In this document: positions 565-48,687 of the stretch, piece after piece
Numbering within the stretch: the stretch's first letter is position 1
How the letters are laid out: every line of letters begins with the position of its first letter
Assembly: GCA_965368975.1 (NCBI GenBank)
Contig: CBDUPA010000009.1
Coordinates: forward strand, 1 to 64,000
DNA length: 64,000 nucleotides
Source: an uncultured bacterium
GTDB lineage: Bacteria > Acidobacteriota > Thermoanaerobaculia > Multivoradales > JAHZIX01
Direction: 5' to 3'
Position numbers and translations under genes: made by a program
Notes under the pieces: generated by a model
Databases searched by the model: none
Told to the model about the DNA's origin: nothing
What the model saw: the letters and a program-made list of their open reading frames with translations, nothing else

Positions 565-2445
565 TCACCCCCCGGTCTGCGGCTGCGCACCGTGTCCGTG
601 GGCAGGCTGCACGCCGGTCGGGTCGTCGAGTGCCGGTTCCGGCGCGAAAGCGAGAATTCGAGACACCTTCTGCCGGCGTACCTCGATGGCGAACCCACGG
701 TACAGCCACAGCTCGCCCGCGGGGGTGTACAACTGCCGTCTCGGCGGCCCGAAGACTTCGCGAACCGCTGCAGGCTCCTGAACACCGGACCAGGGCGCTT
801 CGACGAGAGCCAGTTGAAAGTTGACTTCCAGAAGCCGTAGACCCTCAGTGTCGCGGTGGAAGGCTCCATCGAGGGAGCCCAAGCTGAAGGCTCGCGTGGA
901 CAGTTCTGTGTCACCGCGAGCCAGCACCTCGGGCACGGGTCCAGGCTGCCATGGTAGGAGGCCTTGCAGGTCGACCCGGACATCGGCATTGACATCGCCC
1001 GATGGTGACTCGGAATCGGCTTCAGGCGCCGAGTCGGCTGGCCGCGAGCGTAGCCGTGCGACCTGTGCCCAGGGTCCGGTCGACTCCAGACGCAGGAAAG
1101 CTTGCCAAGCCCGTTGAGCATCCGAACGGCCCAGCTGCGCAAGGAGCGCGGCATGGTTATAGGCTAACTCGACATCGGCGGGATACTGGCGGCGCAAGTT
1201 GGCCAAGTCAGCCAGTGCGTCCTGTGCCAGTGCCGGCACGCCCAAGGAATCTGCCATCAGGGCCTTCCCCAGTTCACTCAGCCAGCGCAGTCGCAGATTG
1301 TCTGGATGCTGCTCGAGACCACGGACCGCGATGCCATGAGCAGTGCTGTCGCGGTCCAGGAGTAGGAGCGAAAGCAGGTTCTCGCGCGCCGGCAGATAGC
1401 TCGGGTCGATCTCCAGAGCGTTCTCCAGGTAGGTACGTGCCAGTTTCGCTCGCCTGCGATAGTCGCGGCCCTCGAAGCAGGGAGACTCCGCTTCACCGCC
1501 TCGCCGGAGCAGGCGGCTCGCCAAGGTCGTTTCATCGACCACTACGGGTAACCGGAAGCGCGACACCAAGGCGGCGTCGCACTTGGCAAGCTCAGCAGCA
1601 GCCAGCTGCACGTGCACCAGGCCAAGGTTGTTCAACACCTCGCGGCCGGGGAAGGTCTCGTTGAAAGCTTCCAGGAAGCGCTGTGCCAGCTCGTAGTGCC
1701 CGACCTGCAGCAATCGTACGCCAGCGTAGAAGTAGTCGAGCTCAGCGACCACCTCCTCGCGACTTTCGAGCAACGCCGCGGCGCGCTGACGGGCGGCTTC
1801 AGCCGCCGCTCCGTCGGCCTGGGATGGACCACGGTACGCGCCCTGTGCGACCCGCTGAGTCATCCACTGGGCGAAAATGGCACCATCATCGGCCAGCACG
1901 ACGTGCGGCTCAAAGCCTGCCATCGTCATGAACAGCAATCCGTGACGATCCGCCCTTTGTTCCTGACGCAATGCCTCGTCATCCGGCTCTCCGAAATGCC
2001 CGCGACCGGCGAAGCTCTGCAGGTGCTGGAAATCTTCTCCGGCCAGGTGGGCCAGCTCGTGACCGAAAAGGAAGGCGGCGCGCGCATCACCATCGCTGGG
2101 ATTCGGCGAGCGGTAGCAGAGTTCCAGAGCGCTGTAGGACACCAGGACAGCCCCATCGCGCAGGCTCGCGGCAAACGGTCGCGTTGCCCGCGGCGAGCGC
2201 TCCAACACCACCAGCTTCGGGGGGCGATTGCGGCGCTGGTAGGCCGCGGCTGTGACTCGCTCGAAGACGTCACTAGCCCGCCTGACCCACGGGTGCCCGA
2301 CCTCGATGCTGCCGAAGGTCTGAATCCAGGCGTCGGCGGTCTCGTACTGCTGCGAACTCTGCGCCACCGAGGGCGACACAGCCAGCAGTACTCCTAACAG
2401 CAACACTCCCAGGGAGCCGGCTAGCATGCCCACCGGCCCTCTCAT
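565..2445 (-). CDS. Exported M48-family Zn metalloprotease with TPR repeats
   Basis: Signal peptide (LLLGVLLAVSPSVAQ), HELAH zinc motif, downstream EQRAD (ExxAD) motif, TPR-like helices. Start overlaps the anti-sigma stop (ATGA). Confidence 0.8.
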   Translation of the reverse strand: MRGPVGMLAGSLGVLLLGVLLAVSPSVAQSSQQYETADAWIQTFGSIEVGHPWVRRASDVFERVTAAAYQRRNRPPKLVVLERSPRATRPFAASLRDGAVLVSYSALELCYRSPNPSDGDARAAFLFGHELAHLAGEDFQHLQSFAGRGHFGEPDDEALRQEQRADRHGLLFMTMAGFEPHVVLADDGAIFAQWMTQRVAQGAYRGPSQADGAAAEAARQRAAALLESREEVVAELDYFYAGVRLLQVGHYELAQRFLEAFNETFPGREVLNNLGLVHVQLAAAELAKCDAALVSRFRLPVVVDETTLASRLLRRGGEAESPCFEGRDYRRRAKLARTYLENALEIDPSYLPARENLLSLLLLDRDSTAHGIAVRGLEQHPDNLRLRWLSELGKALMADSLGVPALAQDALADLANLRRQYPADVELAYNHAALLAQLGRSDAQRAWQAFLRLESTGPWAQVARLRSRPADSAPEADSESPSGDVNADVRVDLQGLLPWQPGPVPEVLARGDTELSTRAFSLGSLDGAFHRDTEGLRLLEVNFQLALVEAPWSGVQEPAAVREVFGPPRRQLYTPAGELWLYRGFAIEVRRQKVSRILAFAPEPALDDPTGVQPAHGHGAQPQTGG

Positions 2446-3452
2446 CCGGCAAAGCCCCCCAGCAGCAAGACGGTCTCGAAGCGCTTCTCGAGGCGGCGGA
2501 AGTCGGCACGCTGGGTTGGTGGCGACGCGAGCAACTCTCGCACCTGCTGCAACTCGGCCACCAGGAGTGGGTCACCAGCGCTGTCGAAGCCAGAGCCTTC
2601 GGCCCCAGCCCCGGCGGGCATTGCCAGCACGATCCAGGCATCGAGAGTTCGCAGGAAGGACGGGTGGACCAGAGGGGCCGAAGCGCGGGCACCGGATGCC
2701 AACCGCCCGAGTTCTGCCCAGCGTCCGAAGCGCTGTGGGTCGTTGGCCGCTTCGGTGGCCAACGGCCCAGCGGCAACCAGGGTCACCATCGGCAGCAATT
2801 CGGGCTGCTCTTCCAGGCGCAGGCGAACCGTCTCGAAGTCCGCGACCCACTCGGAGTCTTCGCTGCCGGCGACGCGCATCAGTTGCTCCAACGCGGCCTT
2901 GGCCCCCTCGACATCCCCGAGGTGTACTGCCAGGCTGAGGTCGGTCAAGTAGACACCGCGGCGGAACATCTGCTGAGCCTCGGACGCCGCGGCGGATGCG
3001 AAACCGGCGATCGCAGGCGGCTGGAAAACACTCACTCGTGGTAGGTCGACGTCGGGCCAGAGTTGCTGCAAGTCCAGCGTGTCGGTCGCCCGCACCGTCG
3101 GCGCACCGCTCCCCGACGGCACCGGCGACACAGGCGGCAGCGCCAGCCACAGGAAGAGCCCCACCATCAGAACCGACAATCCAGCCGCGGCGGCGAACGC
3201 CCATTTGCGCCAATGCAGGGGAGCACTCTGGCCACTGGTCGGTGCACCGAAGGTCACGACGGAAGCCGACCGCTCCGAGGTCTCCACGCGATAGCGCGCC
3301 GTCTCGGAGAAGACTTCGAAGCAGGTTGGACATCCCTCGACGTGCTGCAGCAGCCGCTTGCGATCGTGCGCGGCGACGGTGCCATCAATCAAGGCGGCCA
3401 GCTCTTCGGAGTCGGGGCAGCTCGCTTCGGCTTGAGATCGATCCTGGGACAT
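2442..3452 (-). CDS. Membrane-anchored anti-sigma factor (zf-HC2/ZAS domain)
   Basis: CPDSEELAALIDG...HVEGCPTC (HxxxCxxC), followed by a TM helix (WAFAAAAGLSVLMVGLFLWLAL) and an extracytoplasmic domain. Start re-assigned to ATG 3452 with AGGAG RBS. Confidence 0.85.
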   Translation of the reverse strand: MSQDRSQAEASCPDSEELAALIDGTVAAHDRKRLLQHVEGCPTCFEVFSETARYRVETSERSASVVTFGAPTSGQSAPLHWRKWAFAAAAGLSVLMVGLFLWLALPPVSPVPSGSGAPTVRATDTLDLQQLWPDVDLPRVSVFQPPAIAGFASAAASEAQQMFRRGVYLTDLSLAVHLGDVEGAKAALEQLMRVAGSEDSEWVADFETVRLRLEEQPELLPMVTLVAAGPLATEAANDPQRFGRWAELGRLASGARASAPLVHPSFLRTLDAWIVLAMPAGAGAEGSGFDSAGDPLLVAELQQVRELLASPPTQRADFRRLEKRFETVLLLGGFAG

Positions 3453-3546
3453 GTGCTCTCCTGGCCCTGGGCCGGGCTCGAAAACTCGGCTGGCCATCAG
3501 TGGATCCGGGCCGGGGGGCCATCGCCACGTTCCGTTCTCTGGGTTA

Positions 3547-3573
3547 GACGGTTGCGAAGTACGGAATTCCCAT
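3547..3573 (-). promoter_or_regulatory. Putative ECF promoter for the anti-sigma/M48 operon
   Basis: Minus strand reads ATGGGAATTccgtacttcgcaaCCGTCtaa: GAA -35-like and CGTC -10-like elements, same motif and spacing as 4373-4399. Confidence 0.5.
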
Positions 3574-3597
3574 AGTGCAGCGCCCCCTGGCAGGACG

Positions 3598-4350
3598 CTA
3601 CTCCTGGAACAGTCGATCGATGTCACTGGCTGACACCTGGCGCTCCTCTAGGCGCTTGCGCAAATCACGCAGGAGGTGCTCGAGGCGCCGGTACAGAGGC
3701 TTGGCTGGCAGCTGCAGGGTGCGTGCAATGTCGACGATTTTGAAGCCCTGCTCGTACCGCAGACGCAAGATCATCCGATCTTCGGTTTCCAGGTCACCTA
3801 GGTTACCCCTCAGCAGCTCGGCAAGCCTGCGCCGCTCGCCATCGCGCTCGCGCGACAACAAGGCCAGTTCAGCCGTAGCCTCCGGCCCTGGCCTTTCTGC
3901 CAGTTCCTCGGCACCCTCGAAGCGGCGCGGCGGACGTCCTGGCAGACGCGCGGCCATGTCCGTCAACGCTTCCCGCGACAGGGAGACCTCCTGCCGCAGC
4001 ACCAGCTCGACGGCCTCCTCAAGGCCATAGCCGTCGCGGCTGATCAGCTTCTCCAGCTCCTCGGCCTCCGGTCCCAGCTTGCGTGCCGCCGCCGAACAGC
4101 GCCAGCGCCCCTGCTCGCGCACCCGGTAGTCCAGGAACAGGCGCTGAATCACCGTCGTCAGGTAGGTGCTGAAGCGACTGTTGCCCTTGAATTTGCGGAG
4201 TACGGCGTAGTCGTCCGCGATCAGGCGCAGGTGCACGAAGGACCGAAAGTCGTCCGCCTCGTCGGGCCGCGACCGGCGTCGGCGGCAGACGAAGCGAATG
4301 ACGTCTTCGATCACATCCAGGTGAGCGAGAAACTGTTCCTCTGCGTTCAT
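3598..4350 (-). CDS. ECF-type RNA polymerase sigma-70 factor
   Basis: Region 2 (DEADDFRSFVHLRLI...FSTYLTTVIQRLFLD) and region 4 HTH (DRMILRLRYEQGFKIVDIARTL). Start re-assigned to ATG 4350. Confidence 0.9.
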   Translation of the reverse strand: MNAEEQFLAHLDVIEDVIRFVCRRRRSRPDEADDFRSFVHLRLIADDYAVLRKFKGNSRFSTYLTTVIQRLFLDYRVREQGRWRCSAAARKLGPEAEELEKLISRDGYGLEEAVELVLRQEVSLSREALTDMAARLPGRPPRRFEGAEELAERPGPEATAELALLSRERDGERRRLAELLRGNLGDLETEDRMILRLRYEQGFKIVDIARTLQLPAKPLYRRLEHLLRDLRKRLEERQVSASDIDRLFQE

Positions 4351-4372
4351 CGTAGGTCGGTAGCACCGAATG

Positions 4373-4399
4373 ATGAGAAAGTAGGACGATTCGTCCGTC
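4373..4399 (+). promoter_or_regulatory. Putative ECF promoter for the CHAT protease operon
   Basis: ATGAGAAAGtaggacgattcgtCCGTC matches the 3547-3573 motif with identical spacing. The spacer overlaps the palindrome GGACGA-T-TCGTCC (4384-4396). Confidence 0.5.
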
Positions 4400-4488
4400 C
4401 CATGGAGTGGGAAGGCATGGGTTTGGTTGCGCTGCTGGAGCCGGGTGAGAACGCCCACTGATCCGCGCACCTCCGAAACCTCGCCAGC

Positions 4489-7400
4489 ATGAACGTGAGA
4501 CACGTTACTACATCTTCACTACTCGCGATTCTGCTAGTCCTCGCGGCCCCCAGCAAGGCTACGAGTGCAGCACCAGGTGTGTCCGCGGACGCGTCCAGCG
4601 CTCGTGTACTGCGCGGACTGTGCGGCGGTCAGCGAACCCTGGAACCGAGGCTCAGCGGCTTCCCCTTCGCACCTCTGCCCGTCACGGCCTGCACGGCGGC
4701 GGCCGACAGTGCCACGTTGATCCACTTGGCCCAGGTCGACAGCCAGCTACAGCGCATGCTCCGCGAGCGATCGGACCACCTTGCAGCCCTGCATGAGCGC
4801 GGCCTGCTGCTGCTCTTGCTCGGCCGCACGGTCGAGGCGGTCGGATTGCTGCAGCGCGCAGCCGCCAGTACAACCGATCCGTCCAGCAACCTGCTCAGCG
4901 ATCTGGCGGCGGCTCATTGGCAACGTGGTCAGGAGGATGCCCCGTTCGACCTCGTTCGTGGCCTGCTGCGGGCCGATGAAGCACTTGCACGGCAGCCGAG
5001 CCACCCTGGGGCCCTGTTCAACCGAGCCCTGCTTCTCGAGAGCCTGTACCTGCGGCCGGTAGCGGTCGAGGCCTGGGAAGCGTTCCTGGCGGCGGACACG
5101 GCCTCGCCCTGGGCAAGCGAAGTGCAGGAGCGAATCGCACACCTGCAGCAGCCGAGCGAACGCGAGTCCTGGGACCGGCTGTGGCCGCAGATCGAAGCAG
5201 CCGGGCAGGACCCGACAACGCTCGACGAGTTGGTTCGGCAGCGCCATTGGCACGTGCGCCAGCACGTCGAGAAGGTCTTGCTACTCGCCTGGGCACAGGA
5301 CCCACAAAGCCCCGACGGTCGGCAAGCGTTGGCACTGTCCACGGCACTCGCGGCAAGCGTGCAGCGGCTGAGCGGCGACGCTCTGCTCGCGGATGCCGTC
5401 AACCGCATCCAAGACGCCCAGAGTCGCCAGGAAGACGTGCTGTCGCTGCTCAGCCAAGGAACAAAGAGCTTCGCTGAAGCGCGCATCCTGCTGGACCACG
5501 GCGCTCTGGTTGCTGGCTTGTCGAAAATGACTCGGGCGATTTCGGATCTGGAGGCTGCAGGTAGCCCCATGGCTCTGCGTGCCCGTCTGCACTTCGCGAT
5601 CGGCGTCTTCCGTCAAGGCGACTTCCACACGGCACAGCGGGATCTACTCGAGCTAACCAAGGAAGCGGAGAGCTACCCGCTGTTGGTGGGCCGACTCGGT
5701 TGGATGATCGGCCTCTGCCTGGGTGTCACGGGCAAGCAGCGCGAGAGCCTGGTCTGGCACCGCAGGGCAGCGGCCACCTATGCACGAACTCCTGAAGTCG
5801 AAGCTCAGATGGGGATGGAGTCCATGCTCGCCGAAGGCCTGGAGGACATGGGCCGCCCGAATGAAGCTTGGCAGCATACTCACCGAGCGCTGAGTCGGTT
5901 GGCGGAAGTGGACCGCACGGTGCGGCGCCTGGTCACCCTTGGGACGGCGACCCAATTGCTCTTGCTCCGCAACCTGCCTACCATCGCACTCTACTTCCAG
6001 GACCTCGCAGTGGAAGAAACCCTAGACGGCGGAGATCCACTGCTCATGAGTTCAGCACTACAGGCCCGAGCACAGCTCCTGCTGCGGTTGGGCCAACTAG
6101 AAGCTGCGGCGCAGGACATCAAGGACGCCAGGTACTATGCCGAGCAGCTGGAAGACAAGACCAGCCGCTGGGTTCGTTTCAGCTCAGTCCTCCGCATGGA
6201 GGGTGCCTTGCAGTGGCGCACTGGCTCCCCAGGAGAGTCGGTCGAGACCTTGAACCGGGCCATCAGAATCACCGAGGCGCACGACTACGGCTACCGCCTG
6301 GTGCCGCTCTACCTAGAACGCAGCCAGGCTCACCTGTCTGCTGGCAAGGTGGACCAGGCGGCGCAGGATCTCGACGCCGGGATTCGGCTGGTCGAGCGAT
6401 GGCGGTACGATATCGAGGATACCGCCGAGCGCGGCACCTACCTGGAGCATCGCAGACGGCTCTACGACCAAATGACCCTCCTGCAAGCAGGGCAAGGCCG
6501 GATCGAGCAGGCATTCGACTACAACGAGCGCAGCCGTGCCCGCTCACTACTCGATCGGCGACGTCAAGGTGACGACACCGAGGATACGGAAGCAACCACG
6601 GGAGTCTGGCCGGTTACTCGCATCCAAAGCGGCCTCCCCGAGGGCAGTGCTCTGCTGGTCTATGCGCTGCCGAGCGCGGGAGATCGTGCCGAAGACGACC
6701 GGAACGTCCTGTGCTGGCTGGCCACCCCCGATCGCCTGCAGCTGCGAGCGCTGGACGTGGCCGCACTAGAGCTGCGCACGATGGTGCGAGAAGTAGCGCA
6801 GCTGCTGCAGCAACAAGCACCGGCAACAGATCTCGACCCGTACCTACAGGACCTGCATCGGCATCTCCTGGAGCCAGCACTGGCCGAGCTGCCCGGGGTC
6901 GACACACTCCTGATCGTGCCGGATCGAGAGCTTTCCGGGTTGCCCTTCGCCGCGCTGCGCAACGCCAACAGCGGCCGCTACCTGGTCGAGGACTACGTGC
7001 TGGCGCAAGCCCCTAGCGCCAGCCTCTTGATGGAGACGCTGCACCCGGATACCGACCAGCCAACCAGGGCGCGCCTGATCGAGGCTCTGGTGATCGGCGA
7101 TCCAGCCTTCGAGGCCGAACTCTTCCCCGAACTGTCAGCGCTGCCTGCGGCCCGAGAAGAAGCTCGCCAGATCGCTGACTTGTACCCGCGCTCCCGCTTG
7201 CTCCTGGGACTGGACGCAAAGGTCAGCAGTATGCTGCCATCTCTACACGAGACCCATGTCCTGCACTTTGCCGGCCACGCGCTTGTCAACGAGGCTTCGC
7301 CGCTCCTGTCGGCGTTGGTTCTAGCACCCGAGCCGGACGCCAGCGATTCGAGCACCGGGGGCTCGGGTGCGCTGGAAGCGAGAGATCTTTACACCTTGGA

Positions 7401-7773
7401 TCCCGGTGCGAGTCCTGACCTGGTGGTGTTGGCGGCTTGCCGCAGCGGCGGTGATGTCCAGGCACTGACAGGCCCATTCCTGGCGGCCGGGAGTTCCGCG
7501 GTCGTTGCGAGCCAGTGGGACGTGCTCGACGAGGTCTCTGCACAGTTACTGACCTACTTCCACCAAGAACTCCGAGTCGGCCAGACTCCGGCATCCGCCC
7601 TGGCTCATGCCCAGAGGGACTGGCTCTCTCAAACGGTGAATCCCACGCCCGCCCACTGGGCGGTCTATGCAATCCATGGCGGCCTCATTCCGGTCTTTCC
7701 GGCCGCGCCAAGCACGCCAGGCGCGGCGACGCGGACGCCAGGACACCCTGGCACCAGGAAGCCCAGACACTAG
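4489..7773 (+). CDS. TPR-CHAT (caspase-like, clan CD) protease with N-terminal signal/anchor
   Basis: Hydrophobic N-terminus, long TPR region, ERSRARSLLD helix, and CHAT motifs LLIVPD..L..LPF, HVLHFAGH (catalytic His), LVVLAAC (catalytic Cys), SQWDV and HWAVY. Confidence 0.9.
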   Translation: MNVRHVTTSSLLAILLVLAAPSKATSAAPGVSADASSARVLRGLCGGQRTLEPRLSGFPFAPLPVTACTAAADSATLIHLAQVDSQLQRMLRERSDHLAALHERGLLLLLLGRTVEAVGLLQRAAASTTDPSSNLLSDLAAAHWQRGQEDAPFDLVRGLLRADEALARQPSHPGALFNRALLLESLYLRPVAVEAWEAFLAADTASPWASEVQERIAHLQQPSERESWDRLWPQIEAAGQDPTTLDELVRQRHWHVRQHVEKVLLLAWAQDPQSPDGRQALALSTALAASVQRLSGDALLADAVNRIQDAQSRQEDVLSLLSQGTKSFAEARILLDHGALVAGLSKMTRAISDLEAAGSPMALRARLHFAIGVFRQGDFHTAQRDLLELTKEAESYPLLVGRLGWMIGLCLGVTGKQRESLVWHRRAAATYARTPEVEAQMGMESMLAEGLEDMGRPNEAWQHTHRALSRLAEVDRTVRRLVTLGTATQLLLLRNLPTIALYFQDLAVEETLDGGDPLLMSSALQARAQLLLRLGQLEAAAQDIKDARYYAEQLEDKTSRWVRFSSVLRMEGALQWRTGSPGESVETLNRAIRITEAHDYGYRLVPLYLERSQAHLSAGKVDQAAQDLDAGIRLVERWRYDIEDTAERGTYLEHRRRLYDQMTLLQAGQGRIEQAFDYNERSRARSLLDRRRQGDDTEDTEATTGVWPVTRIQSGLPEGSALLVYALPSAGDRAEDDRNVLCWLATPDRLQLRALDVAALELRTMVREVAQLLQQQAPATDLDPYLQDLHRHLLEPALAELPGVDTLLIVPDRELSGLPFAALRNANSGRYLVEDYVLAQAPSASLLMETLHPDTDQPTRARLIEALVIGDPAFEAELFPELSALPAAREEARQIADLYPRSRLLLGLDAKVSSMLPSLHETHVLHFAGHALVNEASPLLSALVLAPEPDASDSSTGGSGALEARDLYTLDPGASPDLVVLAACRSGGDVQALTGPFLAAGSSAVVASQWDVLDEVSAQLLTYFHQELRVGQTPASALAHAQRDWLSQTVNPTPAHWAVYAIHGGLIPVFPAAPSTPGAATRTPGHPGTRKPRH

Positions 7774-7784
7774 GAAGGAATCTC

Positions 7785-8936
7785 ATGGCCTTTACTCTGC
7801 ATTCGTACTTCGCTGGACTGAACCTGTTCACGCCCAACGCACGCCACACCGAGATGACCTGCATGATGCTCGACGTCAGCCGGCCGTACTGGTCGTCAAC
7901 CGGGCAGAGGATCCCTCGTCACACCGCGGCGATGGTCTACGATCGAAGACAGCTGCACCACGCGGCAAAGACAGCACCACAAGCCGCTGATACCGACTTG
8001 TCTCTCAAAGAGCTTCTCGCTCACGAAGCTCCCGCCGGCCTGCCGACCGAGAACGTGGCCGCGACCCGGCAGATCGGCCTCGCCCCACCCATGGCTCCGC
8101 AGCACCAGGTTCCCGAGGAGCTGCGGCACCTGGCCTTCTGGCGCCTGGATGAAGAAGATGTCGCCATTCGCCCCGGCAACGAGCCGGCACCGCGCCATCG
8201 CCTCCAAGTGGTCTATGACCGGCGCATTTACAATCCGGACGGCACCCCCAAGAACATGCTCCCTGACTTCAGCGCGGGCGAGGAACGGGACTTCTCCTGG
8301 GTCATCGATATCCGAGATCTCAGTCGCGAGATCGGCGTGCAGCGCGCCACCGCCGATCCTGACATAGTGTCCGAGTCACCGCAGCTGAACCTTGTCGCCA
8401 GCCGTGTAGCGCTGACCGTCGGCGAGCTCTCGACGAAACGACTGGTCGGCAACAAGGATGGTATCTACGCCTATGAGTTCCGCTCCCTGGGTGAACCGGA
8501 CACCCGCGTTGGCCAGCGCCAGGCAGTCGCAGAGATCGCCGAATGCCAAACGGTGATCGACGCTGACTCGGTCACCCTCACGGCGACCCCCTTCGGTGGC
8601 GGCGCTCAGCGCTCGATCGAGCTGGCACCGAGCAACGCGGCCGACCCGCACGTCCACATCGGCTTCATGAACTACCCCTTGCACGAGGGCTGCTGCGAGG
8701 ACGGCGTGGGCATCAACGACCTGGAACTCTACTACGAGTTGCTGCGCACCCGACCACCGATCCGGCGCCGGCCGGTGGCGCACCGGATGGCGCAGAAGGT
8801 CACGCAGGGGCCTGAGCAACCGACCCCGCCCATCCTCGACTGGATGTACGAGCGCAAGTGGGTCACGGGTGACCTGCAACACAGGAGCCAGCTAGACATC
8901 TGCCCCCTCGGCCAGGGCCCCGGCGGCGGCGACTGA
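7785..8936 (+). CDS. Hypothetical protein (383 aa) coupled to the CHAT gene
   Basis: ATG 7785 with GGAAGGAA RBS, 11 nt after the CHAT stop; host-like codon usage; no recognisable domain; ends ...LDICPLGQGPGGGD. Confidence 0.8.
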   Translation: MAFTLHSYFAGLNLFTPNARHTEMTCMMLDVSRPYWSSTGQRIPRHTAAMVYDRRQLHHAAKTAPQAADTDLSLKELLAHEAPAGLPTENVAATRQIGLAPPMAPQHQVPEELRHLAFWRLDEEDVAIRPGNEPAPRHRLQVVYDRRIYNPDGTPKNMLPDFSAGEERDFSWVIDIRDLSREIGVQRATADPDIVSESPQLNLVASRVALTVGELSTKRLVGNKDGIYAYEFRSLGEPDTRVGQRQAVAEIAECQTVIDADSVTLTATPFGGGAQRSIELAPSNAADPHVHIGFMNYPLHEGCCEDGVGINDLELYYELLRTRPPIRRRPVAHRMAQKVTQGPEQPTPPILDWMYERKWVTGDLQHRSQLDICPLGQGPGGGD

Positions 8937-43955: not shown

Positions 43956-46823
43956 TTATGCATGCCACATCACCTCAAGGTGCTGCAAGTCTTCCACTCC
44001 CAGGTGGATGGCGAGATCTCGGAAAAGCGACATAACATTATTGAAGCGCTTTTTATATCTATCCATCTCTGCTTCCATGCACAGTTCTGGAATGTTAAAA
44101 GAGTTCATCTCGAGATTTCGCAATGCCGCCTTCAGAAACTGCTCCTCCTCCAAGAACCACTCCAGAGTTGAGGTGCCCGAACTGGCATGTTTTCTGGCAG
44201 CACCAACTACATACTCGACGCTAGTAACCAACACACGCAACATGGTGTCGACCTCGGAATAGGTCGGCAGACGTCTCCTGAGAAGTGCCTTGAGCGAAGC
44301 CTTTGTATGGATGAATCTCTTAATGTAAGCCGCCGTTATCTGCTGCTTATCCAGATTCTGAACAAACCCCTTGAGGCCGGGTATGCCACCTCCCAACTTG
44401 GAGACCAGGGAGACTATATCTTCCTTCGGCAACTCACCACTTAGCTGGGGACGAAGGTCGTCCTGCCGTGCATCTTCCGACCACGCGGAGATGATGCTCT
44501 CGATTTGCTCCTTGATTTCCGGAGCTAAAGACTCGCTAAAGTGCAGAGCAGTCATTGCAGTTGTAGCGCGAGTAATCGCAGGGGCATACAGCACCAGGTA
44601 ACCGGTGCCACCATAAGCCATTCGGTACCGTCGCTCCCACAACTCGACTTTTGTAACAAGCTGACTCACAAGCAAATTGAGGTATGTCTTATATTCCGGA
44701 CTCACCTTCTTCAGACCCAAGACGATCTCTGTACTATTGAATGCCGTAGCAAGTGTTTCATACAGGATTCGTAATGTAATCATCTCCGTCTGATTAAGCT
44801 GTCTCGATATATCAGGTATCGCATTAAGGCTACTCCGATAGAAACCTATTTGTTTCCACTCAGTTTCACCCAACAGATCCAGAAGACGAAGATACTCCTC
44901 TAGCTTCGTCTGAAAAGTCAGCGAACGATCATTAACGGGTCTCTCTGCCAGCTCAATCGCGCAGTACCACACATATTCAAAATTACCCAGAACTCGACGA
45001 AAGTACTCATGCCCATGCTCGGAAAGCACAACATCCTGTCGCAAATCTCTTTTCTTCGCCCGAAGAGAACTGTTAGTGCTAAACCAGAGAAGTAACCTGA
45101 ATTTATTATGCAAGGAATTCAGGTTATCCAAAACAGCCTCAAGAGGAATTCCCGTCCGGGCCAGACGAGAGGCGACTTCGCTTACTACCATGCGCGGCTT
45201 GGCATTGAGCAAAGCTAGTATCCGAAGCTTCGAAAGCGTCGGATAGTTGGGGTGGGATCTAGCACGGGCGGGCAAGAAGAGATTTGAGACCCGCGGAATG
45301 GCTATCGGATGACGGCTCTCAGCCAACAACGTATAGACCAACTGCCCATACGGTACAGGAACACTCCGGGAGATTCCTTTCAAGTCGGTCCGACCGACAG
45401 CAGAACTCAAAATTATGGGCCTAATATAGAAATTCTGAAAAAATCGCTGCAGTTGATTGAGTGCATAACGGCAACACCTCCCCACTAAAGCATCCAGAGT
45501 ACCTGCAAGCTCCCTCAAAGCCTGCGAGGGAATCTGCAACAGGAACAAATAGTGGTGGTCGGCGTGGACCCGCTCCTTTAACTTTACAACAGGGTCTCCA
45601 CCTTTATCCTCACCCACAACCAAGATTAGTGCATAAAAGTAAGAACAAACCACAAAGGCCTTCACCTCCTCGTCAGTGGGTTCTTCGCCTGCTTGCCATG
45701 GACTGGGATAACTCTGTCCAGACTTGAGATCCTCTACAGACCTCCCAAGAACATACTTGATTAATCTATGCAAGACCATTGTGAAATTATTGGGCCCGTG
45801 ATGATACCGAAAGATCAGCTGCCGCTTATAGCTTCGATTCGCTATCGAACTCGGGCGTAAGGGTACCAAGATTGAAATCTTTGGGATCTCTGATGCTGCA
45901 TCTAACAATTCGTCTAGTATCGCCTCTATATGTGCCGTTGGCAGCTGGTCAAGATTGTCAATTATTAATATATTGAGCGGGTTCTCCGTAGAGCATCTCT
46001 GGACATAGAACTCCAGTAGAAGCCGCATGAAATCTCGGCTCTTCTCTGAATCTTCCGTGAGATCTTGAATCAGATCATCAAGGTCCGGCGCCGCCTCTCT
46101 GTAGGTGTCAATTAATTTCTTCACGACATCAAGGGTTGGCTCGAGTTCTAGTAGCGTGCCACCCATGGTTAGGGATCTTGTGACAAGCCCAACATGATTG
46201 GGATGCAAAGGCTCCTTCCAGCCAACGATGTCATTGACAATCAGCAACCTCCTCAGAACCGTGTATTCATCGTCCAAGAAGAGAACCTGTTGCGGCGTGA
46301 GTTCAGTTGGCGCCAACCACTCTTCTAGAAGCCGTGTATAGAGCGCGAACCGGATCTCCTTCATTGCACGACGGACAGCCCCCTTCTTCTTGCGGACATT
46401 ACCAGTCTTGAGAAAATCGATAATTAGGGGGCGCCGGGGACAAGCGATCCTGCCGCACGGGCAGTTGCTGGATCCAGCCAACTCAGCCAACTGCCGGGAG
46501 ACGTAGTTGACTGTCGTACTCTTCCCGGCTCCAAGGCCACCTACCAATATCAACAAATTGAAGTTTGGGCGGGTGTGAAGCCTCTGGACTAACTCGCTTT
46601 CATAGTTCACTCGTGGACTTCTTCCGGAGGTATCAGCTTCGATCACAATCGCTGGACCGTCACTATCGACCCCTGGATAAAGATTAATCCTCTCAGACCC
46701 GGGTATATAGTCTTCTCTGTCTAATAACTGCTCCGCTCCAATTACCTCTCTCAAGAAACCTATAATTCTTCCAAGAAAGACCTCATACTGGCCTTTTGCA
46801 AGCTGCGTCTCTACTTCTAGCAT
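43956..46823 (-). CDS. Low-GC 955-aa P-loop NTPase with putative winged-helix region (horizontally acquired)
   Basis: Walker A GGLGAGKST, Walker B LIIDNLD, sensor-like VPLRP; GGAG RBS; GC about 45-50% by eye versus about 65% in the flanks. Confidence 0.8.
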   Translation of the reverse strand: MLEVETQLAKGQYEVFLGRIIGFLREVIGAEQLLDREDYIPGSERINLYPGVDSDGPAIVIEADTSGRSPRVNYESELVQRLHTRPNFNLLILVGGLGAGKSTTVNYVSRQLAELAGSSNCPCGRIACPRRPLIIDFLKTGNVRKKKGAVRRAMKEIRFALYTRLLEEWLAPTELTPQQVLFLDDEYTVLRRLLIVNDIVGWKEPLHPNHVGLVTRSLTMGGTLLELEPTLDVVKKLIDTYREAAPDLDDLIQDLTEDSEKSRDFMRLLLEFYVQRCSTENPLNILIIDNLDQLPTAHIEAILDELLDAASEIPKISILVPLRPSSIANRSYKRQLIFRYHHGPNNFTMVLHRLIKYVLGRSVEDLKSGQSYPSPWQAGEEPTDEEVKAFVVCSYFYALILVVGEDKGGDPVVKLKERVHADHHYLFLLQIPSQALRELAGTLDALVGRCCRYALNQLQRFFQNFYIRPIILSSAVGRTDLKGISRSVPVPYGQLVYTLLAESRHPIAIPRVSNLFLPARARSHPNYPTLSKLRILALLNAKPRMVVSEVASRLARTGIPLEAVLDNLNSLHNKFRLLLWFSTNSSLRAKKRDLRQDVVLSEHGHEYFRRVLGNFEYVWYCAIELAERPVNDRSLTFQTKLEEYLRLLDLLGETEWKQIGFYRSSLNAIPDISRQLNQTEMITLRILYETLATAFNSTEIVLGLKKVSPEYKTYLNLLVSQLVTKVELWERRYRMAYGGTGYLVLYAPAITRATTAMTALHFSESLAPEIKEQIESIISAWSEDARQDDLRPQLSGELPKEDIVSLVSKLGGGIPGLKGFVQNLDKQQITAAYIKRFIHTKASLKALLRRRLPTYSEVDTMLRVLVTSVEYVVGAARKHASSGTSTLEWFLEEEQFLKAALRNLEMNSFNIPELCMEAEMDRYKKRFNNVMSLFRDLAIHLGVEDLQHLEVMWHA

Positions 46824-46956
46824 GATTCATCTCCAGGGTTTTCCAATAAATTGCCTTCGCTCTCTTGCGAGAGCTTCTGCAAGACTTCCTTCGCTCGGCG
46901 CTTCTATCTTTGTGCTCACGTCTCATCAAGGGATCAGTCTGGCAGAGAGCTAATTG

Positions 46957-48687
46957 TTAGCGGCCAGAGGCCTGCGGGTAGATCGGCTTCAGGTCGACGG
47001 GCACATCCCGCAGACGCTCGATCGCCGCCACAAGTTCAGGACTCGGACGACCGTAGCGCTCCAAGAAGTCCTTGGTGGCCGCGTAGTCGCCGGTGGCTTG
47101 CAGCATGACGAGACGGTGCAGCAGGTCGCGGATGGCGCCTGGGAAGGCGCCGCTGACGGTGGCGAAGCGACCCTCTTCGTCGACGGTGAGAGCGCCCTTT
47201 TCGAGCAGGTAGTTGAATTGCGCCACGACGCCTTGACCGTGGGCTTCGTCGTAGCCGAAGCGCGCGGAACGGAAGAGGCCAGCGACGTAGGTGGGCTCGA
47301 CGTAAGGGGCGAGATCTTCCGACATGTCACCGGTGCCGATGAGAGAAAGGATGTTGTAGATACCCATGACGTCGGCCTTGGCCTCTTCCATCACCGAGTA
47401 GAACTCCTTGAGTTCGAGACGGACCTCGGTCTCGCGACCGTCGACTTCGATCAAGCCGGGGCCGAGTCCGTGGGAGAGCTCGTGGTGCAGAACCTGGTTG
47501 AAGAAGGCCTCGAAGCTGACGTTGGCGGCATCCTCCGCACTGAGGGTGCGCTGCGCGATGGGCATGAGCATCTGGTCGTACTTGGCACGGATGACGTTGC
47601 GTAGCAGAACCTTCTTCGAGCCCTTGGCCTCGCGTACACGTTCGTCGTTGGGCAAGTTGTAGGCTAGCGCCTGGACGCCGGGACGGGCATCACCGTGGGC
47701 GTAGACGACATCGACGACGCGCAGCGGGCTCTCGGAACCGCGGTCGAGATTCTTGTGCTGCTCGGGGATCGGCAGGTTTTGTTCCAGCCAGGGCAAGCGA
47801 GCCTTGTAGGCGTCGAGCTTGGCGGACTCTCCAGGCAGCGCAACGGTGACGTAGGAAGTGAAGGCAGCCTTGAAGTTGAAGAGTTCGTCTTCGTAGACTT
47901 CGTAGGGTCCGATGGTCACCTCGACGAGGCCGTCGAGATCCATCCAAGCCAGGTCGCTCTCGTAGTAGTCGTCACTCAGGAAGGCGTCGGCGCGCAGTTC
48001 GAGGAAGCGCCGTAGCGTCGGATCGTCGGTCTGGCTGGCGGCTTGGCGCAGCAGCTCGGCCGCCGGCTGCAACCACTCGGCGTATTCCTCCGAATACGGG
48101 ACGGCACGCAGACCTCCGTCCTCGGTGCGTCGAACAACGCTGTTCAGGCTCTCGAAACCGGCGCGCTGGTCTGGATGCTCGGTGAGCCAAGCCTCGAACT
48201 CTTCCGCGGTCAGGTCTTCCGGATAGAAGCCCGCACCGGGCGGGTGCTCTTCACTACCGATAAACGGTTCGCGCTCGGCTTGCCGATCCCAGGGCCCCAT
48301 CATGATCTCGAAGTAAGAACGCGCGGCCTCGGGTCCGGGACCGCTCCAGCTCTGCAGACGTTCCCGCATCTCTGGATTGCCGCGCCAGGCCTGGCGCCAG
48401 AAGATCTCGGCCATCAGGTCACTGGCTTGCACCAGGGTAGCGACGACGGCACGATCGGACTCGGAGAGCGGCGACATGTCGGCCTGGATCTCGGTCGGGG
48501 CGAACTGCTCGACCCGCTGCTGCACGTCGTCGGCGTACGGCAAATCGGCGACTGCTGCAGCCACTTCGGGCTCGGAGGTCGCATCTTCACCGGAAGGACC
48601 GCAAGCCCCCGGGAGTACCAGGACGAGGGCCAGAGACAGGAATATCCAGCTAGAGGCGGAAGATCGGGGGTTGTGCTGTCGAAGCAT
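46957..48687 (-). CDS. Lipoprotein Zn-peptidase, M49/DPP III-like with HExxH pentapeptide
   Basis: Lipobox-like LPGAC, IGPYEVYED, AYNLPND, HELSHG, EEAKAD. Start set at ATG 48687. Confidence 0.85.
   Translation of the reverse strand: MLRQHNPRSSASSWIFLSLALVLVLPGACGPSGEDATSEPEVAAAVADLPYADDVQQRVEQFAPTEIQADMSPLSESDRAVVATLVQASDLMAEIFWRQAWRGNPEMRERLQSWSGPGPEAARSYFEIMMGPWDRQAEREPFIGSEEHPPGAGFYPEDLTAEEFEAWLTEHPDQRAGFESLNSVVRRTEDGGLRAVPYSEEYAEWLQPAAELLRQAASQTDDPTLRRFLELRADAFLSDDYYESDLAWMDLDGLVEVTIGPYEVYEDELFNFKAAFTSYVTVALPGESAKLDAYKARLPWLEQNLPIPEQHKNLDRGSESPLRVVDVVYAHGDARPGVQALAYNLPNDERVREAKGSKKVLLRNVIRAKYDQMLMPIAQRTLSAEDAANVSFEAFFNQVLHHELSHGLGPGLIEVDGRETEVRLELKEFYSVMEEAKADVMGIYNILSLIGTGDMSEDLAPYVEPTYVAGLFRSARFGYDEAHGQGVVAQFNYLLEKGALTVDEEGRFATVSGAFPGAIRDLLHRLVMLQATGDYAATKDFLERYGRPSPELVAAIERLRDVPVDLKPIYPQASGR

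Follow-up and report, generated by a model that had tools for sequence, protein, structure and literature searches.

A divergent TPR-CHAT protease cassette of Thermoanaerobaculia as a putative two-chain counterpart of DdvA/DdvS

Described systems and the layout of the cassette

The closest described counterpart of the locus analyzed here is DdvA/DdvS of Myxococcus xanthus (PDB 8ROT, 8RW5; PMC11506125, PMC6061681), which shares with it an ECF sigma factor, a zinc-finger membrane anti-sigma head, a periplasm-facing scaffold-TPR-CHAT fold with a His-Cys dyad and a promoter of the type AA-n15/16-CGT (GTAA-n16-CGT for DdvS). Self-cleavage of DdvA has been proposed (PMC11506125). Craspase of type III-E (Csx29/Csx30/CASP-sigma) also combines a TPR-CHAT protease with a sigma factor, yet it is cytoplasmic, RNA-guided and Cas7-11-bound and lacks a membrane anti-sigma factor. 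For type III-B, a SAVED-CHAT protein, triggered by cyclic oligoadenylate via SAVED, has been shown to activate PCaspase, whose targets are a sigma factor and the partner of that factor (10.1101/2023.06.23.546230); the relay predicted below would share a CHAT protease activating a second protease that acts on the sigma partner, the second protease being here a predicted exported M48-like metalloprotease. ECF54 (PMC7826278, PMC8999054) is likewise encoded near a TPR-CHAT protein and another protease, and proteolytic control has been proposed; it is, however, actinobacterial, has no anti-sigma factor and is accompanied by subtilase and carboxypeptidase-regulatory partners, whereas our locus has an anti-sigma-like gene and relatives in Thermoanaerobaculia.

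In a stretch of 64,000 nucleotides (the window), a sequence-only reading had proposed a five-gene cassette in which an M48 protease gene is translationally coupled to an anti-sigma gene and a CHAT protease has an intact His/Cys dyad. All of this was confirmed: the 5/5 ORFs lie within 565..8936 (Table 1), the anti-sigma stop overlaps the M48 ATG by 4 nt, and the dyad consists of His930 (7276-7278) and Cys984 (7438-7440). X starts 11 nt behind the CHAT stop, and the cassette is flanked by housekeeping-like genes for an RRM protein, ferrochelatase and RuvA. The accompanying remark that no characterised system of this layout was known, made with Craspase as the precedent, needs correction: DdvA/DdvS has the same logic (PMC11506125), and by fold it is closer than Craspase. 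Nor is the cassette the only one of its kind: a paralogue lies on C6 of the same genome, which contains 21 CHAT-domain ORFs.

Table 1. Positions of genes, candidate cut sites and promoter motifs in the window.
Feature	Position	Strand	Remarks
M48-TPR, predicted exported M48-like zinc metalloprotease with TPR, 626 aa	565..2445	-	HELAH 129-133, E162
Likely anti-sigma factor P0002, 336 aa: zf-HC2, TM from ~residue 84, linker, ~190-aa outer domain	2442..3452	-	
ECF-type sigma factor of 250 aa; a conserved insert separates regions 2 and 4	3598..4350	-	
TPR-CHAT P0004, predicted exported protease, 1094 aa	4489..7773	+	homologous to periplasmic part of DdvA
Protein X of 383 aa, beta-rich, unmatched by family and fold	7785..8936	+	
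Arg315-Gly316 of M48-TPR, candidate CHAT cut site	1498..1503	-	Cys289-Cys323 loop
Anti-sigma linker 148-152 (IAGFA), candidate M48 cut region	2997..3011	-	other members: xx-Arg-Gly
ECF-type promoter motif, looser copy, upstream of anti-sigma gene	3547..3570	-	from sequence
Predicted sigma-dependent promoter GAAA-n15-CGTC, facing TPR-CHAT-X operon	4377..4399	+	

The TPR-CHAT protein matches Pfam CHAT at E 1e-55, and its structure model (pLDDT 89) has DdvA as top fold match (E 5e-20, TM 0.55/0.66, 1055 columns), with Craspase (E 1e-14) and separase ranking below. A single-sequence search did not match DdvA; profiles and fold did. Furthermore, relatives contain 11 fused zinc-finger-TM-TPR-CHAT chains, 10 of them with X as next gene, and the profile of these chains matches DdvA at E 8e-35 and aligns with the split proteins across 1014 columns. 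Judged from the model, the TPR-CHAT protein corresponds to the periplasmic portion of DdvA encoded as a protein of its own, and by sequence comparison and modelling the cassette represents DdvA/DdvS divided between two chains. In DdvA a single chain combines zinc domain, TM and TPR-CHAT, whereas two divergent genes encode them here; in addition, the anti-sigma factor brings an outer domain of its own, the sigma factor is longer than DdvS and its gene is not predicted to be self-driven, and X and M48 are added. A DdvA-type anti-sigma factor is further characterised by a dimer whose active sites face the partner and by control of a CBASS/CRISPR defence island; CBASS or CRISPR genes do not adjoin the cassette, a Cas gene, the Cas7-11 partner included, is found neither in nor beside it, and PADLOC gave 0 matches for the five proteins. 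Since a conserved helix (886-898) falls in a stretch unaligned to DdvA, the TPR-CHAT protein may, unlike DdvA, have a three-helix motif.

Conserved core, accessory protease and promoters

In Thermoanaerobaculia, the conserved core comprises the sigma gene followed by the anti-sigma gene and, divergently, TPR-CHAT followed by X, and these genes co-occur far above chance. The expectation that CHAT, M48 and X would all recur in sigma neighbourhoods is thus borne out for CHAT and X; M48 is rare. Relatives of the sigma factor (TIGR02937, 57.6 bits, above cut-off, with regions 2 and 4 present) were found in 30/40 related genomes. The anti-sigma family, with predicted zinc ligands of the CHCC type (C12, H37, C41 and C44), lies directly behind 33 of the 57 sigma matches; at 16 of these 33 loci, 4 of which are incomplete, the divergent CHAT neighbour is absent. 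X is directly behind a CHAT in 76/80 X-centred loci, and two different sigma/anti-sigma families share the same layout around CHAT-X. Among 94 X-adjacent CHATs, the catalytic His is kept in 92 and the Cys in 93, and a hydrophobic N-terminal segment is present in 79 of 82 scorable CHATs. Tat export was rejected, as both RR and KK occur before the hydrophobic stretch. The proposed export of both proteases is backed by hydrophobicity and homology, rather than by a signal-peptide predictor.

The M48-TPR subtype occurs in 8/300 genomes of the order, always behind an anti-sigma gene, and CHAT-X is kept at 6/8 of its loci; at locus L166, the sigma factor, anti-sigma factor and M48 are present with no CHAT within ~12 kb. 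M48 had been regarded as an integral member of the cassette; given its rarity, we rejected it as a core part, and it is accessory to one small subtype. Its Pfam M48 match (E 0.002, 18.4 bits) falls below the 20.3-bit cut-off, and its profile search matched no M48 structure. HExxH is found in 8/8 members, followed by E162-x-x-A-D in 4/4 aligned ones, in which Cys289 and Cys323, bracketing the Arg315-Gly316 loop, are invariant.

The promoter motif precedes anti-sigma genes in the sense direction in 21/35 cases (25/35 for the loose motif) and in 0/35 cases in the antisense direction for either form. Toward the divergent gene it occurs at 16/39 loci and toward the sigma gene at 0/39, which led us to reject self-activation of the sigma gene. 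CHAT-X operons without an adjoining sigma gene also carry the motif, and the family-1 motif is found at 1/39 family-2 loci. In a genome-wide weight-matrix scan, 15 sites scored at least 17, a narrow margin over the 12 and 5 in shuffles. The top matches lie in front of CHAT cassettes and exported unknowns; when left out of training, the window's own site did not rank among the top 30. A 3+3 dyad search did not recover the motif. Support for the motif thus consists of the positional and strand tests. The idea that the sigma factor amplifies the cassette survives in part: predicted promoters point toward CHAT-X and toward the anti-sigma/M48 genes, but none toward the sigma gene.

The Arg-Gly motif and a putative protease-gated switch

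Among 33 family-1 anti-sigma factors without M48, the linker contains R[G/S/A] in 32 (background 39%) and RG in 24 (background 9%), and family-2 anti-sigma factors have Arg in one column in 38/40. The linker Arg column aligns with M131-G132 of DdvA, which belong to V129-P140, the stretch closest to the dyad of the partner (PMC11506125, Fig. 3B legend); the predicted cut site thus falls on the loop that DdvA turns toward the active site. RG following the scaffold motif was found in 6/11 fused CHATs vs 6/52 split CHATs. At the M48 loci, RG is present in 0/8 anti-sigma factors vs 8/8 of their M48s, 4 of the 8 loci having been retrieved after the idea had been noted; the M48-linked anti-sigma factor of L166 retains Arg-Ser. 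A quick tree indicates that the 8 M48-linked anti-sigma factors may have one origin, so the swap may be a single event. At family-2 loci, an exported C14 caspase carries Arg-Gly after the catalytic Cys.

Altogether, the cassette probably forms a protease-gated sigma switch. The swap of RG between anti-sigma factor and M48 suggests, from sequence, a relay from CHAT via M48 to the anti-sigma factor, whose full course we consider to have slightly less than an even chance of being correct. Activated, periplasm-facing TPR-CHAT would cut M48-TPR at Arg315, Arg specificity being presumed as well; activated M48 would clip the outer linker of the anti-sigma factor, and an RseP-type intramembrane cleavage might follow, by analogy with DdvA. 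The freed sigma factor is predicted to activate transcription of the CHAT-X operon and of the anti-sigma/M48 genes, with CHAT presumably feeding back positively and the anti-sigma factor negatively. Where M48 is missing, as in the more frequent forms, the anti-sigma linker would be the direct target of CHAT, with the cut at xx-Arg|Gly. Co-occurrence, fusions, the dyad and the candidate site hence favour the extracytoplasmic caspase-like switch put forward by the sequence-only reading; the direct cut of the anti-sigma factor that it envisaged is less likely than a relay in the M48 subtype, because the anti-sigma factor there is without the Arg site. If the CHAT promoter requires the sigma factor, resting CHAT would have to arise by leaky expression, and this would suit an output no less than a sensor.

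CHAT might instead cut this anti-sigma factor directly at a non-Arg site, with M48 as a second substrate and an output rather than a relay. DdvA, for which such a cut has been proposed, has Met-Gly at the aligned site; CHAT specificities differ, craspases cutting after Met or Leu (PMC11506125); most systems do without M48; and the window linker still holds Arg in TVRA and LPRV. Yet one CHAT would then need two specificities, for RG in M48 and for an Arg-less linker, and the loss of RG tracks M48 in 8/8 loci, so that we regard this reading as unlikely. That neither protease controls the anti-sigma factor, with outer-domain sensing or another protease acting at Arg and with CHAT, X and M48 as a stress or defence output, would accord with the many anti-sigma loci that have RG without an adjoining CHAT, with the motif at CHAT-X operons lacking a neighbouring sigma gene, and with the secreted trypsin-like, subtilase-like and caspase genes that often follow X. 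It is quite improbable, however, given the anti-sigma heads fused to TPR-CHAT in relatives, the RG that remains on the anti-sigma chain while mostly lost from split CHATs, and the recurrence of the layout in two sigma/anti-sigma families. Least probable is that M48-TPR alone senses the signal and cuts first, CHAT-X being an output operon of the sigma factor: the coupling of M48 to the anti-sigma gene, L166 and the sigma-type promoter before CHAT-X speak for it, but it leaves the RG loop in every M48 unexplained, and most M48 loci retain CHAT-X.

Returning to the relay from CHAT via M48, the M48 subtype predicts that a cysteine protease hands over to a metalloprotease outside the cytoplasm. Since enzyme and presumed substrate are distinct gene products, and both a cut site and a promoter suited to a reporter are predicted, a first cut by CHAT in sigma release is directly testable. 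A wider proposal, that an Arg-specific three-step periplasmic relay had its Arg-Gly address shifted among anti-sigma factor, caspase and M48 in evolution, with X as a new-fold His-Cys-Asn enzyme and constant output, is rather doubtful as a whole.

Protein X

For the 383-aa protein, nothing usable was obtained from Pfam, NCBIfam, PADLOC, PDB sequences or Atlas. Foldseek searches of PDB and viral libraries with the whole-protein model yielded nothing at E <= 0.001, and the best Z was 2.2 among 48,161 chains; a missing match does not prove a new fold. A gasdermin-like X was rejected, as neither sequence nor fold matched. Most likely, X is a dedicated partner or output of CHAT. A prediction of the complex of CHAT (560-1068) with X scored 0.00 ('no answer', evidence neither way). 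The window X has no signal peptide, and because a signal peptide is absent from 102/107 copies, X may not meet CHAT. Longer fused forms of X numbered 0 among 8000 scored candidates, which is weak evidence. The conserved residues G11, H46, N296 and C373 include a His, an Asn and a Cys that hint, from sequence conservation, at a catalytic or thiol-reactive role. X is thus an unannotated family without fold match that accompanies these proteases throughout the class; one 700-aa protein starts with an X domain.

Relation of the cassette to DdvA/DdvS

The five-gene cassette (565..8936) was borne out as the sequence-only reading had described it, including the 4-nt overlap of the anti-sigma and M48 genes and the CHAT Cys codon at 7438-7440. 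It is a real, conserved and uncharacterised variant of the DdvA/DdvS kind. Its marks are a cut site and a promoter, both predicted, a likely M48 relay, and X, a partner without a fold match that is encoded directly behind TPR-CHAT. The closest described system is DdvA/DdvS of Myxococcus xanthus (PMC11506125, in part), and DdvA was the first-ranked match to the model of the window's TPR-CHAT. Furthermore, 11 relatives carry fused zinc finger-TM-TPR-CHAT chains, 10 of them followed by X; their profile covers DdvA from zinc finger through CHAT and aligns with the split TPR-CHATs over 1014 columns. At the place of the fused chains' TM, 79 of 82 split TPR-CHATs show a signal-like or lipoprotein-like segment (16 of 98 were unscorable). 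The DdvA match, the fused relatives and the signal segment replacing the TM together suggest that the window system works like a split DdvA. It resembles DdvA cut in two and, not being one chain, is no member of that system.

The discussion of PMC11506125 gives the range of DdvA-like proteins as Myxococcota and one Comamonas, and its homologue table S7 may bear on this; the fused anti-sigmas of the present phylum widen the range given in that discussion. Accessible literature on CHAT with ECF/anti-sigma, DdvA, Thermoanaerobaculia and caspase-like TPR-CHAT, which included few subscription papers, yielded DdvA, Craspase, SAVED-CHAT and ECF54 (PMC7826278, PMC8999054, in part). Neither a split periplasmic system nor an M48 relay nor X turned up there. 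Within that literature, the claim that no characterised system has this layout holds for the split layout, the M48 relay and X, but has to be qualified, as a characterised system of this logic exists in DdvA/DdvS (PMC11506125, in part).

Conservation of the gene neighbourhood

Relatives of the window sigma occur in 30 of 40 related genomes; public records name same-class relatives Thermoanaerobaculia. The expected company of CHAT, X and M48 was found in part: among 57 sigma matches (53 stretches examined; 8 matches too close to a contig end for judging neighbours), 33 are followed by the anti-sigma family, 17 have a divergent TPR-CHAT and 14 CHAT then X, but M48 is present in only four sigma-centred loci, the window counted. 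One match adjoins a fused CHAT and 11 a divergent Ser/Thr kinase. At L012, L013, L029, L031, L032, L035, L036, L050 and L052 the same sigma family lacks the anti-sigma and diverges from such a kinase, which suggests control by phosphorylation in this sister subtype.

Within the class, the X profile matched 62 of 301 genomes, a tally that takes in one unpublished genome, G201, used for no other result; across the phylum it matched 13 of 401. CHAT lies directly upstream in 76 of the 80 X-centred loci examined, out of roughly 140 matching places; the profile was built from genes next to a CHAT and may therefore underestimate X copies found elsewhere. The same divergent layout, with a different anti-sigma family, CHAT and X, recurs at 38 of 43 matches to a second, canonical ECF sigma; most of these belong to a single family, and they do not count as independent cases. 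Next at most of these loci come genes for a small lipoprotein and for an exported C14 caspase in which RG (Arg-Gly) is located after the catalytic Cys; such loci likely encode a CHAT-to-caspase cascade outside the cytoplasm.

Loci and features related to the cassette (G000, the window's own genome; C, contig; L, related locus)
Feature	Location	Content
Paralogous cassette L051	G000 C6:255371-265161	anti-sigma <- sigma; TPR-CHAT -> X -> 534-aa exported protein -> second X -> trypsin-like protein
Other-type sigma/anti-sigma/CHAT cluster	G000 C1:443741-449227	
Other-type cluster	G000 C23:28141-33722	
Other-type cluster	G000 C46:11261-15750	
Other-type cluster	G000 C3:290854-295145	
Other-type cluster	G000 C6:278964-285472	
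Other-type cluster	G000 C7:148510-153198	
Second family	L084-L123	canonical ECF sigma, Cys-less anti-sigma with conserved RG, lipoprotein-type TPR-CHAT, X, 125-aa lipoprotein, exported C14 caspase
Fused DdvA-like anti-sigmas of this phylum	L017, L142, L146, L150, L152, L153, L156, L157, L158, L160	
X copies with lipoprotein-type signal peptides	L002, L136, L150, L154, L160	

Candidate cut site, likely M48 relay and predicted promoter

In the linker past the TM, the motif R[G/S/A] occurs in 32 of 33 anti-sigmas of the window's family that come without M48 (background 39%), and RG itself in 24 of 33 (background 9%). Arg occupies one column in 38 of 40 anti-sigmas of the second family and in 8 of 11 fused chains (10 of 11 within one position). 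This column aligns with DdvA M131-G132, in the segment placed nearest the partner's catalytic dyad (PMC11506125, in part). RG occurs in 6 of 11 fused versus 6 of 52 split CHATs (19 rows without anchor left out), and in about 1 of 12 membrane anti-sigma candidates of the own genome distant from a CHAT. Separases cut after Arg and craspases after Met or Leu, according to the same partial source, and bacterial orthocaspases after basic residues (PMC6426788, in part). We infer that the window CHAT may be Arg-specific.

Of 300 genomes of the order, 8 contain the M48 subtype, which always lies behind the anti-sigma. CHAT-X accompanies it at six of eight loci; of the other two, one stops at a contig edge and the second lacks CHAT-X within about 12 kb. 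The linkers of its anti-sigmas contain RG in 0 of 8 and R[S/A] in 2 of 8 cases (one at the edge of the scanned segment) and an RG loop is present in 8 of 8 M48s, counts that overstate a motif swap, as these loci may share a single origin; four of the eight were collected after the idea had been formed. On the simplest reading of the RG distribution, the CHAT target would have shifted from the anti-sigma to M48, and M48 would have taken over the cutting of the anti-sigma. For a cascade from a CHAT to a second protease, SAVED-CHAT/PCaspase offers a precedent (10.1101/2023.06.23.546230, in part).

The sigma-CHAT gaps contain a motif, AA-n12-14-[G/T]TCCGTC, like the DdvS promoter GTAA-n16-CGT (PMC6061681, in part). 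It is directed away from sigma in 16 of 39 gaps and toward sigma in none of the 39, a partly circular count as the motif was derived from these gaps; of the regions before anti-sigma genes, which had no part in motif discovery, 21 of 35 have it in sense orientation and 0 of 35 in antisense. It also lies upstream of CHAT-X operons and X genes without a neighbouring sigma; a genome-wide scan gave a weak result. A housekeeping-type -10 hexamer points toward sigma in 21 versus 2 of 39 gaps. Sigma would accordingly be made steadily and, once freed, raise CHAT-X and its own inhibitor.

Protein X and the wider genome

X measures about 300-380 aa and has a confident, beta-rich model (pLDDT 81, pTM 0.85). 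G11 and H46 are invariant, C373 is kept in 84 of 85 and N296 in 81 of 85 copies. No family match was found in Pfam, NCBIfam, PADLOC, PDB sequences or Atlas, and no fold match to the whole-protein model in PDB and viral libraries. A lipoprotein-type signal in 5 of 107 copies suggests that X acts outside the cytoplasm, at odds with the signal-less majority, the window's X included. P0008, a 700-aa protein, joins an N-terminal X domain to a C-terminal region with an HExxH motif. Genes behind X are often subtilase-like or trypsin-like (L002, L005, L037, L116, L126-L128, L130-L132, L135, L139, L143, L144, L150-L152), and L146 and L150 encode another, different HExxH protein downstream.

The window's own genome holds 21 CHAT-domain ORFs, several adjoining sigma/anti-sigma pairs, and a paralogous cassette on contig C6, in which a second promoter motif begins immediately past the first X stop. 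RG or RS (Arg-Ser) is present in the anti-sigma linkers seen at the C1, C23, C6 and C7 clusters. Sigma or CHAT genes at L001, L023, L033, L108, L114, L128 and L164 are apparently split over two frames or shortened, through either assembly error or decay. Within the window, 44001-47000 has a GC content of ~0.48-0.51 versus 0.64 elsewhere and is possibly acquired DNA.
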